A stretch of 64,000 bases of DNA from Escherichia coli (GTDB lineage: Bacteria > Pseudomonadota > Gammaproteobacteria > Enterobacterales > Enterobacteriaceae), in assembly GCF_013315695.1 (NCBI RefSeq), contig NZ_CP054353.1, one strand, 5' to 3'. Made by a program: the position numbers. The first letter of the stretch is position 1. Each line of letters begins with the position of its first letter. Positions 29,901 through 35,900 of the stretch are shown piece after piece.

Positions 29901-32900
29901 AGACAACTATAAAGGGATCATGTCTGTAATTGTGGTTGTCTTATTACTGACCCTTACATTGATAGCCATTTTTTCGGCAATTGATCAGCTGGGTATTTCA
30001 GAAATGGGTCGCATTGCAAGGGATCTTACACATTTCATTATCAATAGTTTGCAAGACTGAAAATAAACAGCAAATTATAAATATGAAATGTTAAAAAAGT
30101 ATCGATAAAAACTTTATTGTTTTAAGGAGATAAAATGTCGCTCGTTTGTTCTGTTATATTTATTCATCATGCCTTCAACGCTAACATTTTAGATAAAGAT
30201 TACGCCTTCTCTGACGGCGAGATCCTGATGGTAGATAACGCTGTTCGTACGCATTTTGAACCTTATGAGCGGCATTTCAAAGAAATCGGATTTAATGAAA
30301 ACACCATTAAAAAATATCTACAATGCACTAACATCCAGACAGTGACGGTGCCTGTTCCTGCGAAGTTTTTACGTGCTTCAAATGTACCGACGGGATTGCT
30401 TAATGAAATGATTGCTTATCTCAACTCGGAAGAACGCAATCATCATAACTTTTCAGAACTTTTGCTTTTTTCTTGCCTGTCTATTTTTGCCACATGCAAA
30501 GGTTTCATTACACTATTAACTAACGGTGTGCTATCCGTTTCCGGGAAAGTGAGAAATATTGTCAACATGAAGCTGGCGCACCCATGGAAGCTGAAAGATA
30601 TTTGTGACTGCCTGTACATCAGTGAAAGCCTGTTGAAGAAAAAACTTAAGCAAGAGCAAACGACATTCTCACAGATTCTTTTAGATGCCAGAATGCAGCA
30701 CGCAAAAAATTTGATACGCGTAGAAGGTTCAGTCAATAAAATTGCCGAACAATGTGGTTATGCCAGCACATCTTATTTTATTTATGCGTTCCGCAAACAT
30801 TTCGGCAACAGTCCGAAGAGAGTTTCTAAGGAGTACCGTTGTCAAAGGCACACCGGTATGAACACGGACAACACGATGAGTGCTTTAGCTATTTGATTAT
30901 TTGCTAACGAGTAGTCAACCACGCACGCTACGTAAAAATTAAAATGGGGCAGCCATTCCCTGCCCCGCGTTGTTTTTAGGCAATATATTTATTGAAATAA
31001 ATAAGTGACATCCATCACATATTTATGCACTTGCATAACCTGTTGCATAATTATTTATGATCTCAATTAGGTATTTTGTCAGTAAAATACAATAATTTAT
31101 TAAATATCAATAGATTAGTTGTTTATCGGCGAGAAATTACTTAGTAGAACAGAAAGTAATGTCAACGCTTTATGGACTGTTATTTCCCTTTTTTTAGCTA
31201 AATCTGCTATCTCTTTATGTGACTCACTTCACTTACATCCACTTATTTCTCTTCGTAAAATTACTTTGGAATTAAGTACAATAAGAAGAGGAACATTTAT
31301 GAAGTCTGCATTAAAGAAAAGTGTCGTAAGTACCTCGATATCTTTGATACTGGCATCTGGTATGGCTGCATTTGCTGCTCATGCGGCAGATGATGTAAAG
31401 CTGAAAGCAACCAAAACAAACGTTGCTTTCTCAGACTTTACGCCGACTGAATACAGTACCAAAGGAAAGCCAAATATTATCGTACTGACCATGGATGATC
31501 TTGGTTATGGACAACTTCCTTTTGATAAGGGATCTTTTGACCCAAAAACAATGGAAAATCGTGAAGTTGTCGATACCTACAAAATAGGGATAGATAAAGC
31601 CATTGAAGCTGCGCAAAAATCAACGCCGACGCTCCTTTCATTAATGGATGAAGGCGTACGTTTTACTAACGGCTATGTGGCGCACGGTGTTTCCGGCCCC
31701 TCCCGCGCCGCAATAATGACCGGTCGAGCGCCCGCCCGCTTTGGTGTCTATTCCAATACCGATGCTCAGGATGGTATTCCGCTAACAGAAACTTTCTTGC
31801 CTGAATTATTCCAGAATCATGGTTATTACACTGCAGCAGTAGGTAAATGGCACTTGTCAAAAATCAGTAATGTGCCGGTACCGGAAGATAAACAAACGCG
31901 TGACTATCATGACAACTTCACCACATTTTCTGCGGAAGAATGGCAACCTCAAAACCGTGGCTTTGATTACTTTATGGGATTCCACGCTGCAGGAACGGCA
32001 TATTACAACTCCCCTTCACTGTTCAAAAACCGTGAACGCGTCCCCGCAAAAGGTTATATCAGCGATCAGTTAACCGATGAGGCAATTGGCGTTGTTGATC
32101 GTGCTAAAACACTTGACCAGCCTTTTATGCTTTACCTGGCTTATAATGCTCCGCACCTGCCAAATGATAATCCTGCACCGGAGCAATATCAGAAGCAATT
32201 TAATACCGGTAGTCAAACAGCAGATAACTACTACGCTTCCGTTTATTCTGTTGATCAGGGTGTAAAACGCATTCTCGAACAACTGAAGAAAAACGGACAG
32301 TATGACAATACTATTATTCTCTTTACCTCCGATAATGGTGCGGTTATCGATGGTCCTCTGCCGCTGAACGGGGCGCAAAAAGGCTATAAGAGTCAGACCT
32401 ATCCTGGCGGTACTCACACCCCAATGTTTATGTGGTGGAAAGGAAAACTTCAACCCGGTAATTATGACAAGCTGATTTCCGCAATGGATTTCTACCCGAC
32501 AGCTCTTGATGCAGCCGATATCAGCATTCCAAAAGACCTTAAGCTGGATGGCGTTTCCTTGCTGCCGTGGTTGCAAGATAAGAAACAAGGCGAGCCACAT
32601 AAAAATCTGACCTGGATAACCTCTTATTCTCACTGGTTTGACGAGGAAAATATTCCCTTCTGGGATAATTACCACAAATTTGTCCGCCATCAGTCAGACG
32701 ATTACCCGCATAACCCCAACACCGAGGATTTAAGCCAATTCTCTTATACGGTGAGAAATAACGATTATTCGCTAGTCTATACAGTAGAAAACAATCAGTT
32801 AGGTCTATACAAACTGACGGATCTACAGCAAAAAGATAACCTTGCCGCCGCCAATCCGCAGGTCGTTAAAGAGATGCAAGGCGTGGTAAGAGAGTTTATC

Positions 32901-35900
32901 GACAGCAGCCAACCACCACTTAGCGAGGTAAATCAGGAGAAGTTTAACAATATCAAGAAAGCACTAAGCGAAGCGAAATAACTAAACCTTCATGCGGCGG
33001 ATTTTTCCGCCGCCTTATTGAGCGAGATAGCGATGCACGTTACAGCCAAGCCCTCCAGTTTTCAATGTAATCTCAAATGTGATTACTGTTTTTACCTTGA
33101 AAAAGAGTCGCAGTTTACTCATGAAAAATGGATGGATGACAGCACTCTGAAAGAGTTCATCAAACAATATATCGCAGCGTCTGGCAATCAGGTCTATTTT
33201 ACCTGGCAAGGCGGTGAACCCACTCTGGCTGGCCTGGATTTTTTCCGTAAAGTTATTCACTATCAACAACGCTATGCAGGCCAAAAACGTATTTTTAATG
33301 CATTACAAACGAATGGCATTTTATTGAATAATGAATGGTGTGCCTTTCTCAAAGAACATGAGTTTCTGGTTGGTATCTCGATCGATGGACCCCAGGAGCT
33401 ACATGACCGTTACAGACGCAGTAATTCAGGTAACGGTACTTTTGCAAAAGTGATAGCAGCCATCGAGCGTCTGAAATCATATCAAGTAGAGTTTAATACG
33501 TTAACCGTCATTAATAACGTTAATGTCCATTACCCTCTTGAGGTTTATCATTTTTTAAAATCTATCGGCAGTAAACATATGCAATTTATCGAATTGCTAG
33601 AAACCGGGACGCCGAATATTGATTTCAGTGGTCATAGTGAGAACACATTCCGTATCATTGATTTTTCTGTGCCTCCCACGGCTTATGGCAAGTTTATGTC
33701 AACCATTTTTATGCAATGGGTTAAAAACGATGTGGGTGAAATTTTCATCCGTCAGTTTGAAAGCTTTGTCAGCCGTTTTTTGGGGAATGGGCATACCAGT
33801 TGTATTTTCCAGGAATCCTGCAAGGATAATCTGGTTGTTGAAAGTAATGGAGATATTTACGAATGCGATCATTTTGTCTATCCACAGTACAAAATTGGAA
33901 ACATTAATAAATCTGAACTCAAAACGATGAACAGTGTTCAACTGACAGCGCAAAAAAAACGGATTTCAGCGAAATGTCAGCAATGTGCATATAAACCTAT
34001 CTGCAATGGTGGTTGCCCTAAGCATCGTATTACTAAAGTAAACAATGAGACTGTTTCCTATTTTTGCGAAGGTTATAAAATCCTTTTTTCAACCATGGTA
34101 CCTTATATGAACGCCATGGTGGAGTTAGCTAAGAACAGAGTACCGCTTTACCACATTATGGATGTTGCAAAACAAATGGAGAATAATTATTAACGCTCCC
34201 CCTTAGCTCCATTCTTAGCCTCCTTCTTATGACCTTAACAAGGCACCCGACATAAATTCCTGTCGGGTGTTTCGTCTTCATCATCTTCCTTTGCGAAAAT
34301 CCTGGCTTACGAGGTATGCGTCAGGGCATTAGCAATACCCTTGATTATCAATAGCATAACCATAACCACTGAAAATGAATATTTCTTTATATTTCATATT
34401 GTTAAATGATACTTAAATAAATTTCATCAGTATATCATTGCCATAGATAATCATTGGATGGCACAATCAATTTTCGCTAATGATAACCATTCCCATTACG
34501 TTTTGTATGTTGATAGCAAAGTATCTCTGTCTGCTGAAGCCCTTTTGGCTGCGTAAGAATAATAAAACTTCAGTGTTGTTAATCATTATTATCCTCGCCA
34601 TGATCCTTGGCGTGGTTAAAATTCAGGTCTGGTTAAACGACTGGAATAATGATTTTTTCAATGCGCTAAGCCAGAAAGAAACTGATAAGCTTTGGCAGCT
34701 TGTCCTTTGGTTCCCTGCCCTGCTGGGGATCTTTGTATTAATATCCGTAAACAAAACATGGTTAATTAAACTACTGACTATTCGCTGGCGCGAATGGTTA
34801 ACAGATTACTACCTTAATCGCTGGTTTGCAGATAAAAACTACTACTTCACGCAGATCTACGGCGAGCATAAAAATACAGATAACCCTGACCAACGTATCG
34901 CTGAAGACATTCTCTTACTGATCAGCAAAACGCTCAGTCTTTCATTTGGCTTCATCCAGTCACTTAGCATGCTGATCACCTTTACCGTTATTCTTTGGCA
35001 AAGCGCGGGTACGCTCTCATTCACTGTTGGTGGAACTGAATGGAATATCCAGGGGTATATGGTCTATACCGTCGTGCTCATTGTGATCGGTGGAACTTTA
35101 TTTACCCATAAGGTTGGTAAACGTATTCGTCCGCTTAATGTGGAAAAACAACGTAGCGAAGCGACATTTCGAACTAATCTTGTGCAGCATAATAAGCAGG
35201 CAGAACTGATTGCGCTAAGCAATGCTGAGTCTCTACAACGCCAGGAGTTGAGCGAAAATTTTCATACCATTAAAGAGAACTGGCATCGTTTAATGAATCG
35301 TCAGCGGTGGCTTGATTACTGGCAGAATATTTATTCGCGCTCGCTTAGCGTTCTTCCCTACTTTCTGTTATTGCCGCAGTTTATTAGCGGACAGATCAAT
35401 CTGGGTGGACTGATGAAATCACGCCAGGCATTTATGCTGGTATCGAACAATTTAAGCTGGTTTATTTATAAATATGATGAACTTGCTGAACTGGCTGCGG
35501 TTATCGATCGCTTGTATGAGTTCCATCAACTCACCGAACAGCGCCCTACGAATAAGCCTAAAAATTGCCAACATGCGGTACAAGTGGCTGACGCGAGTAT
35601 TCGTACTCCTGATAATAAGATCATATTAGAGAACCTGAACTTTCATGTTTCGCCAGGCAAATGGCTATTACTGAAAGGTTACTCTGGTGCGGGAAAAACC
35701 ACACTGCTTAAAACATTATCCCACTGCTGGCCGTGGTTTAAAGGTGATATTTCTTCTCCTGCTGACAGTTGGTATGTGTCACAAACACCGTTAATCAAAA
35801 GCGGCTTACTGAAAGAGATTATTTGTAAAGCACTTCCCCTGTCCGTAGACGATAAATCGTTGAGTGAAGTACTGCATCAGGTTGGGCTGGGGAAATTGGC

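Follow-up and report, generated by a model that had tools for sequence, protein, structure and literature searches.

The ydeN and ydeM genes of Escherichia coli, an annotated sulfatase-maturase pair, form a transcription unit separate from the adjacent acid-resistance genes

Directly downstream of the acid-resistance genes ydeP, safA, and ydeO, E. coli carries two genes that look like a sulfatase gene and the gene for the enzyme that would activate it, and this raises the question of whether they make up a working pair and whether that pair has anything to do with acid resistance. The stretch of DNA analyzed, a 64-kb window, is 100% identical to E. coli MSB1_4I, in which RefSeq names both genes and labels ydeN a sulfatase and ydeM an anaerobic sulfatase maturase. 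The pair is thus already known, being named, annotated, and discussed since 2007. All features described here lie on the plus strand. ydeN (31299..32981, from its ATG at 31299 to its stop at 32981) encodes a 560-residue serine-type S1 sulfatase precursor, and ydeM (33033..34193) encodes a 386-residue anaerobic sulfatase-maturating enzyme; the open reading frames and the RefSeq annotation of the identical DNA agree with the original prediction, which had placed the two genes at 31299-34193. An alternative ydeM start at an in-frame TTG (33018) was rejected because all five orthologues inspected begin with MH[IVF]T.KP, equivalent to the ATG, and opposite-strand open reading frames within ydeN (e.g., 32070-32690, 206 residues) are without support and were set aside. 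The ydeN/ydeM region is carried by 5381 of the 5426 complete genomes of E. coli.

YdeN matches the Pfam profile Sulfatase (PF00884) from end to end (positions 1-301 of 301; E = 1.3e-70) and contains both sulfatase signature motifs as defined in PROSITE. The formylglycine site, residues 132-143 (SGPSRAAIMTGR; 31692-31727), reads S132-G-P-S-R-A-A-I-M-T-G-R and fits the signature [CS]-x-P-x-R-x(4)-T-G. Position 132 is Ser and the protein has no Cys at all, so a radical-SAM maturase is obligatory for this serine-type enzyme, not optional. YdeN is the only Ser-type sulfatase of E. coli. SGPSR is carried by 118 of the 120 closest homologues, and across 21 orthologues (69-84% identical) all ten S1 catalytic positions, D66, D67, S132, R136, K183, H185, H286, D345, N346, and K364, are invariant, as are the Ser, Pro, and Arg of the formylglycine motif. 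Residues D66, D67, K183, H185, H286, D345, N346, and K364 correspond to D29, D30, K123, H125, H229, D281, N282, and K302 of ARSA. The N terminus, MKSALKKSVVSTSISLILASGMAAFAAHA followed by ADD (codons 1-29, 31299-31385), is built like a Sec-type signal peptide, with a positive, Lys-rich part, a hydrophobic part, and an A-x-A site (AHA before A), and lacks a twin arginine. These N-terminal regions, the SGPSR motif, and the PF00884 match bear out the signal peptide and formylglycine motif claimed earlier, and YdeN is given as periplasmic in PMC10746267. Judged by its sequence, YdeN is a member of the formylglycine-dependent S1 sulfatase family with every catalytic residue intact. An AlphaFold2 model built from a 21-sequence alignment reached a mean pLDDT of 55.5 and a pTM of 0.66, a confidence too low for a fold search or pocket analysis, which leaves sequence as the support for this assignment. 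We found no report in the literature of the sulfatase activity, formylglycine, or substrate of YdeN.

YdeM exceeds the cut-off of the NCBIfam equivalog TIGR03942 (505 bits versus 349.45; E = 1.1e-151; profile positions 1-362 of 363), and its Pfam matches are Radical_SAM (1.8e-22) and SPASM. The radical-SAM motif is C12-x3-C16-x2-C19 (33066-33089), and the auxiliary cysteines, encoded within 33801-34067, are arranged as C257-x5-C263-x14-C278 and C315-x2-C318-x5-C324-x3-C328...C345; all 11 cluster cysteines are kept in five other genera. Residues 4-359 of YdeM match Clostridium perfringens anSMEcpe (4K36-4K39) with an E value of 2.7e-63, and the CX3CX2C motif, the eight auxiliary-cluster cysteines, and a Cys-Asp pair all align. 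This alignment bears out the CxxxCxxC motif and C-terminal Cys clusters that had been noticed in YdeM. The two systems differ in that the natural sulfatase of anSMEcpe is Cys-type whereas YdeN is Ser-type, and YdeM remains below the cut-off of NF010321, a model of the length of anSMEcpe (256 bits versus 441). Its model score and conserved residues mark YdeM as a member of the anaerobic sulfatase-maturating enzyme family, with every cluster residue intact. Benjdia et al. in 2007 reportedly deleted aslB and ydeM and saw maturation of a Cys-type reporter sulfatase unaffected, and the in vivo activity of YdeM is for that reason still putative.

The same gene order recurs in Aeromonas, Yersinia, Salmonella, and Iodobacter, with a spacer of 57-70 nt, and in Anaerobiospirillum, with a spacer of 222 nt, and the pair is also present on Proteus/Providencia plasmids. 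The flanks in the five other genera are unrelated, and this joint travel of the two genes supports the enzyme-maturase pair that had been proposed, as do the family models, the maturase alignment, and the invariant catalytic residues. We consider it probable that the two genes make up a self-contained operon that moves horizontally and encodes a periplasmic sulfatase, YdeN, together with its activator, YdeM. In the cytoplasm YdeM, a radical-SAM/SPASM enzyme predicted to carry a SAM-binding [4Fe-4S] cluster and two auxiliary ones, would oxidize Ser132 to C-alpha-formylglycine while the YdeN precursor is still unfolded. The modified protein would then be exported by the Sec route, with removal of the 29-residue signal peptide, and in the periplasm it would serve as a metal-dependent S1 sulfatase, its metal held by D66, D67, D345, and N346 and its hydrated formylglycine attacking the sulfate ester. 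We infer that YdeM modifies YdeN and that YdeN hydrolyzes sulfate esters; that YdeM might convert the Ser or Cys of a sulfatase motif to formylglycine is suggested by a single line of evidence, the conserved gene linkage.

The paradigm of a Ser-type sulfatase with a radical-SAM maturase is AtsA/AtsB of Klebsiella pneumoniae (Szameit 1999, Marquordt 2003, Benjdia 2008). AtsA, an arylsulfatase induced by sulfur starvation, has a Ser formylglycine motif and a Sec signal peptide and is modified before export, and the gene for its radical-SAM/SPASM maturase is adjacent, with atsB before atsA. The Ser motif, the Sec signal, the adjacent maturase, and modification before export, which is predicted for YdeN, are common to the two systems, whereas in ydeN-ydeM the sulfatase gene comes first and ydeN responds to AraC, GadX, and acid. 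The other E. coli pair, AslA/AslB, likewise consists of a putative sulfatase beside a maturase homologue; it lies outside the 64-kb window and is the same kind of pair, both being putative in activity.

The position of the genes could be taken to mean that ydeNM is an accessory to the EvgA/YdeO acid-resistance island, switched on together with ydeP-safA-ydeO. The genes ydeP (27336-29615), safA (29863-30060), and ydeO (30135-30896) indeed precede ydeN in the same orientation, with ydeN directly downstream of ydeO, and G+C content is low over the whole stretch. An intrinsic terminator nevertheless follows ydeO (30945..30977; an 8-bp, 6-GC stem, TGGGGCAG...CTGCCCCG, then CGTTGTTTTT) and is the upstream boundary of the ydeNM unit, and ydeN has its own promoter: the ydeO/ydeN spacer contains a sigma-70 promoter, TTGTCA-16-TATTAA (31076..31103), which genomic SELEX gives for this spacer and assigns to ydeN (PMC3946193). 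The downstream boundary is a terminator-like hairpin after ydeM (34241..34279; CACCCGACA...TGTCGGGTG, then TTTCGTCTTC), with a folding energy of -19.6 kcal/mol and a z score of -6.4, equaled in 0 of 200 shuffles. With terminators on both sides, the SELEX promoter, and the reported co-transcription of ydeN and ydeM (PMC10878103), ydeNM is its own two-gene transcription unit. Moreover, ydeN goes down about 40-fold (log2 change, -5.3) at pH 4.4 (PMC10746267), it is repressed by GadX (PMC4918353) and, according to second-hand statements in PMC10878103 and PMC3738151, by AraC, and the cassette has no acid-resistance neighbors in the five other genera. We therefore give the acid-resistance reading very little credence. 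Neither induction by acid, EvgA, or YdeO nor co-transcription with ydeO, either of which would assign ydeN to the EvgA/YdeO regulon, was found, and the literature searched held no direct dependence of ydeN on EvgA or YdeO. ydeNM is not part of the neighboring acid-resistance genes; the link is one of adjacency only, so that the location next to ydeP-safA-ydeO stands and the suggested functional and regulatory connection is removed. Expression of ydeN seems to depend on the carbon source, through AraC and possibly CRP, and to be shut off, not induced, by acid; this flags carbon-source regulators as candidates for its control.

It is improbable that ydeNM is instead what remains of an island gained by horizontal transfer, cryptic, in effect silent, and functionless in E. 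coli today. G+C content is low in ydeM (38.5%) and ydeN (44.3%) compared with the window (49.4%), reports of phenotype or activity are absent, and knocking out ydeN made no difference in the one assay found, all of which would suit a remnant, but the genes are intact in 5322 of the 5426 complete genomes, the catalytic and cluster residues are all invariant across genera, and both mRNA and protein have been detected and are regulated. YdeN protein has been detected in anaerobic cultures (PMC3936929), and ydeN mRNA is abundant enough at neutral pH for a 40-fold fall in acid to be possible. The substrate and physiological role of the pair have some relevance, since a gut-adapted mutant showed upregulation of ydeM in mice (PMC10878103), and a sulfonated food dye induced ydeN and no other gene (PMC10653809). 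We regard it as extremely unlikely that YdeM is a RiPP-type peptide SPASM maturase, or serves AslA, and stands beside ydeN incidentally. Models of peptide-type SPASM maturases (DynA, DarE, and others) match YdeM significantly, yet below threshold; TIGR03942 is the only maturase model whose cut-off it passes. Besides NF010321, it falls below the cut-off of NF010308 (361 bits versus 484), the longer curated maturase model that we assume to represent AslB, and a maturase is linked to a sulfatase in every context examined except that of the second E. coli paralogue. A weak secondary Pfam match of YdeN to Phosphodiest (1.3e-07) and an NCBIfam PehA score of 67 bits, against a cut-off of 900, could hint that YdeN, like other members of the alkaline phosphatase superfamily, uses its formylglycine on a phosphonate monoester or phosphodiester, not on a sulfate ester. 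With both sulfatase signature motifs in place, and with the best 60 solved relatives among the matches listed all being sulfatases, mostly carbohydrate sulfatases, this seems very improbable.

If YdeN is a sulfatase activated by YdeM, its closest solved relatives give some indication of what it may act on. These are the S1_19 galactose-4-sulfate carrageenan sulfatases of Pseudoalteromonas (6B0J, 6BIA, 6PSM, and 9HH2/9HH3; E = 3e-52 to 1e-42), with a top score of 181 bits and 37% identity over 320 aligned residues; the likeness is to the best solved match and is not a SulfAtlas placement. YdeN shares with them x-G-P-S-R-[AS]-A-I-[LM]-T-G-R and the GKWHL, YNAPH, and SDNG catalytic blocks, and its metal-ligand and catalytic Lys/His positions align with the S1_19 structures. 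It differs in having Ser where wild-type S1_19 enzymes have Cys (CGPSR), in an insertion of some 27 residues, conserved within its clade, that follows the DDLGYG metal site (approximately residues 81-108), and in a C-terminal subdomain that hardly aligns. The substrate-subsite residues of S1_19B are F103, Y455, and Y458. The one gut-bacterial S1_19 enzyme for which tests were found, Amuc_1182 of Akkermansia, was inactive on every substrate tried, which makes inference of a substrate from S1_19 weak, and no glycoside hydrolase, polysaccharide utilization, or carrageenan-degrading genes were found near ydeNM in E. coli or the five other genera. PMC10878103, in which the substrate is called unreported, puts forward the Bacteroides thetaiotaomicron GlcNAc-6-sulfatase BT4656 (5G2V) as an analogue of YdeN. 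The two have the S1 fold in common, but the match (109 bits, E = 3e-30) is far below that to S1_19, and specificity for mucin GlcNAc-6-sulfate therefore seems less well supported than a galactose-4-sulfate-like one. Our best guess is that the substrate may be a small sulfated carbohydrate, possibly of 4-O-sulfated galacto-configuration, which would direct substrate screens to 4-O-sulfated galacto-sugars rather than to GlcNAc-6-sulfate. Much more tentatively, and with the expectation that it may well be wrong, we suggest that YdeN-type enzymes could be a serine-type offshoot of S1_19-like sulfatases in gut and aquatic gamma- and betaproteobacteria that works in the periplasm and removes sulfate from a small 4-O-sulfated galacto-sugar, supplied by host glycosaminoglycans, mucin, or dietary carrageenan, with AraC and CRP setting the operon low in the sugar hierarchy and an intergenic hairpin setting a high sulfatase-to-maturase ratio. 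If this is true, E. coli, Yersinia, Salmonella, and Aeromonas gain a carbon or sulfur source.

Two minor features are new here, a hairpin whose position between ydeN and ydeM is conserved and two candidate CRP-like sites upstream of ydeN. The hairpin (32994..33013; GCGGCGGA-TTTT-TCCGCCGC) is GC rich, has no U-tract, and folds with -18.7 to -21 kcal/mol (z, -2.5), and in the five other genera a hairpin of other sequence occupies the same position. A minus-strand match to isrK over this hairpin (20 bits versus a gathering threshold of 50; E = 0.38) is attributable to chance or to the hairpin itself; the Rfam scan of 29500-35000 gave no other match. A scan for AraC half-sites (TAGC-N7-TCCATA), meant to place the reported AraC site, was uninformative: it gave 411 matches where chance alone predicts 410. 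Scanning for TGTGA-N6-TCACA gave candidate CRP-like sites at 31004..31019 (AGTGACATCCATCACA, one mismatch) and 31218..31233 (TGTGACTCACTTCACT); at that stringency there are three matches in the window, two of them inside the 402-bp ydeO/ydeN spacer. A proximal promoter-like element, CTTACA-18-TAAAAT (31232..31261), has its -10 at 31256-31261, and the center of the second CRP-like site would fall about 42 bp upstream of the start that this -10 predicts. In Yersinia and Salmonella, too, a CGTAAAAT -10 stands about as far from the start codon.

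RefSeq places a sulfatase gene, ydeN (31299-32981), and an anaerobic sulfatase maturase gene, ydeM (33033-34193), between ydeP (27336-29615), safA (29863-30060) and ydeO (30135-30896) on the 5' side and yddA, yddB and pqqL on the 3' side, all on the + strand, and the original prediction, 31299-34193, begins and ends exactly where ydeN starts and ydeM stops. Because the sulfatase and maturase annotation stands in RefSeq, it is already known, and the pair is reportedly discussed in Benjdia 2007. The window is part of the E. coli chromosome; its region 31000-34500 is 100% identical to that of strain MSB1_4I and is shared by 5381 of 5426 complete genomes of the species, with coverage of at least 80% in 5322.

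The Pfam Sulfatase model matched YdeN (560 aa) across its full profile (E 1.3e-70). As predicted, YdeN carries a signal peptide and a formylglycine motif: its N-terminus, MKSALKKSVVSTSISLILASGMAAFAAHA followed by ADD, is built like a Sec signal peptide, with all three regions and no twin-arginine, and the motif occupies residues 132-143, with serine at the modified position. The orthologues have differing but equivalent N-termini, which lead into a conserved start of the mature protein. Among 21 aligned orthologues (69-84% identity), D66, D67, S132, P134, R136, K183, H185, H286, D345, N346 and K364 are invariant; by comparison with arylsulfatase A, we take these to be the metal ligands, formylglycine site and catalytic Lys/His of class S1 sulfatases. 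YdeN contains no cysteine, and SGPSR is present in 118 of its 120 closest database homologues, which argues that the clade is uniformly serine-type and, judged from sequence, cysteine-free, a modest addition of this analysis.

YdeM (386 aa) scored 505 bits on TIGR03942, the curated anaerobic sulfatase maturase model (cut-off 349), and fell below the cut-off of every peptide-maturase model and of both other curated maturase models. Against 4K36, the solved maturase of Clostridium perfringens, it gave E 2.7e-63, with the radical-SAM CX3CX2C cysteines (C12, C16 and C19), the full set of eight auxiliary-cluster cysteines (257, 263, 278, 315, 318, 324, 328 and 345) and a Cys-Asp pair in register, bearing out the CxxxCxxC motif and C-terminal Cys clusters noticed earlier. 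In five other genera the gene 3' of the sulfatase begins MH[IVF]T.KP and encodes the same 11 cysteines; the ydeM start is therefore ATG 33033, and an upstream TTG was ruled out by these same starts.

Cysteine is the residue modified by oxygen-dependent FGE and by a further system in E. coli. To our knowledge, serine is converted by radical-SAM maturases only (Szameit 1999; Benjdia 2007, 2008), and the pairing of enzyme and maturase therefore makes biochemical sense. Orthologues of YdeN were found in Aeromonas veronii, Yersinia pestis, Y. pseudotuberculosis, Salmonella enterica (within an element carrying an integrase and a TraI relaxase), Iodobacter ciconiae and Anaerobiospirillum (from gut metagenomes), and each of these has a radical-SAM gene directly 3' in the same orientation, amid wholly different flanking genes. 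Identity to the E. coli sulfatase and maturase declines in parallel, from 82 and 67% to 69 and 52%, and the G+C content of both genes is below that of their surroundings in most hosts. Proteus and Providencia plasmids of ~240-260 kb (NZ_CP085482.1, NZ_OK500122.1 and NZ_CP120546.1) also carry the cassette, at 69% DNA identity. With both family models passed and the genes linked across taxa, the predicted sulfatase-maturase pair is supported, and ydeN-ydeM looks like a mobile, co-selected enzyme-plus-maturase cassette, its mobility being a modest addition of this analysis.

In E. coli and five other genera, a GC-rich hairpin separates the stop codon of the sulfatase from the start of the maturase gene (window 32994-33013; 9696-9721 in the Aeromonas locus L002 and 9680-9706, 9696-9719 and 9696-9720 in loci L004, L007 and L008 from other genomes). 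Its sequence is unlike in each genus and a U-tract is mostly absent; its position is conserved. Its probable role is to stabilise the mRNA 3' end or to terminate transcription in part, keeping the sulfatase more abundant than the maturase. The two genes are reported to be co-transcribed (PMC10878103). An intrinsic terminator follows ydeO (30945-30977), and 3' of ydeM there is a strong hairpin (34241-34279; z -6.4) with TTTCGTCTTC after it. Genomic SELEX identified a constitutive sigma-70 promoter for ydeN, TTGTCA-16-TATTAA, in the ydeO-ydeN spacer (PMC3946193), which we located at 31076-31103; the -10 CGTAAAAT of a second promoter-like element (31232-31261) recurs in Yersinia and Salmonella with much the same spacing to the start codon. 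With terminators on both sides and its own promoter(s), ydeNM is therefore a separate bounded unit, and the definition of these boundaries is likewise a modest addition, as are the conserved position of the hairpin and, described below, the two candidate CRP sites and the S1_19 relatives. RefSeq also calls a 41-aa hypothetical protein on the minus strand (34156-34281), overlapping the ydeM 3' end and the terminator hairpin; this call is probably spurious.

The adjacency of ydeNM to ydeP-safA-ydeO holds, but the EvgA/YdeO connection it had been taken to imply is not supported: published expression data run the opposite way, and our literature search turned up no paper that connects ydeN with EvgA or YdeO. 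At pH 4.4, ydeN is among the most strongly lowered genes (log2 -5.3 in mRNA, -5.05 in ribosome occupancy; PMC10746267), and its promoter is bound by GadX and its transcript lowered (PMC4918353). In several published data sets (PMC10746267 among the sources), ydeN decreases alongside lamB, malE, xylF, treC and glpFK, thus behaving as a catabolite-controlled sugar-utilisation gene. This decrease together with mal, xyl and glp genes fits the position of two candidate CRP sites, 31004-31019 and 31218-31233: the 64-kb window has only three near-consensus CRP sites, and these two fall within the 402-bp ydeO-ydeN spacer, where ~0.01 would be expected at the window-wide rate. The second site is centred ~42 bp 5' of the start implied by the -10 of the second element, a class-II-like distance; neither is conserved in the other genera compared. 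AraC is reported to bind the region 5' of ydeN with arabinose only, and ydeMN to be over-expressed in an araC mutant (PMC3738151 and PMC10878103, citing Stringer 2014). The sulfonated azo dye FD&C Red No. 40 significantly induced ydeN alone among E. coli genes, and ydeN is dispensable for reduction of the dye (PMC10653809).

Solved structures are available for relatives of YdeN only, the best being the SulfAtlas S1_19 enzymes 9HH2/9HH3, 6BIA, 6B0J and 6PSM (E 3e-52 to 1e-42; 37% identity over 320 aligned positions), which take the 4-sulfate off galactose in carrageenan. Mucin use by YdeN has been argued from the Bacteroides GlcNAc-6-sulfatase 5G2V (PMC10878103), but this enzyme (E 3e-30) ranks well behind the S1_19 structures, which by sequence comparison are the closer solved relatives. 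S1_19 enzymes have Cys where YdeN has Ser, the C-terminal subdomain barely aligns, and glycoside hydrolases are absent nearby in the window and the other-genus loci examined. Following the DDLGYG metal site, the YdeN clade also has a conserved insertion of ~27 residues (residues ~81-108; window ~31539-31622) that is missing from the S1_19 structures; it lies beside the active site, where it may influence specificity. Akkermansia Amuc_1182, the sole tested gut S1_19 enzyme found, showed no activity on any of the substrates assayed. A small 4-O-sulfated galacto-sugar is the leading guess for the YdeN substrate, albeit one that is unlikely to be correct.

A second YdeN-like sulfatase of the serine type (565 aa, 77-78% identical, motif SGPSRAAILTAR; 7747-9444 in locus L009 of GCA_043957195.1) is present in some E. 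coli, without an adjoining maturase; an 85-aa ORF on its 3' side proved unrelated. This enzyme may depend on chromosomal ydeM. It lies directly 3' of a general porin gene (L009 6516-7652), and a general porin gene (L002 5156-6235) is also found just 5' of the Aeromonas sulfatase; such a porin could let an anionic substrate into the cell.

Elsewhere in the window, fumC-tus-rstBA (fumC end, 25000-25308) is joined via an IS4 copy (25458-26804) to a truncated fimbrial gene (26857-26997), by position a ydeQ remnant, that adjoins ydeP. Judged against the K-12 gene order, this junction would require that a stretch of roughly 100 kb including tus was inverted or rearranged in a similar way. It occurs in one of 5426 complete genomes, and the record of that strain contains 18 matching places, most likely IS4 copies. 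At 46494-49459, an IS1 copy adjoins a 5'-truncated dosP pseudogene, with no dosC annotated from there to digH, and at 9434-10131 a further IS1 copy lies beside asr.
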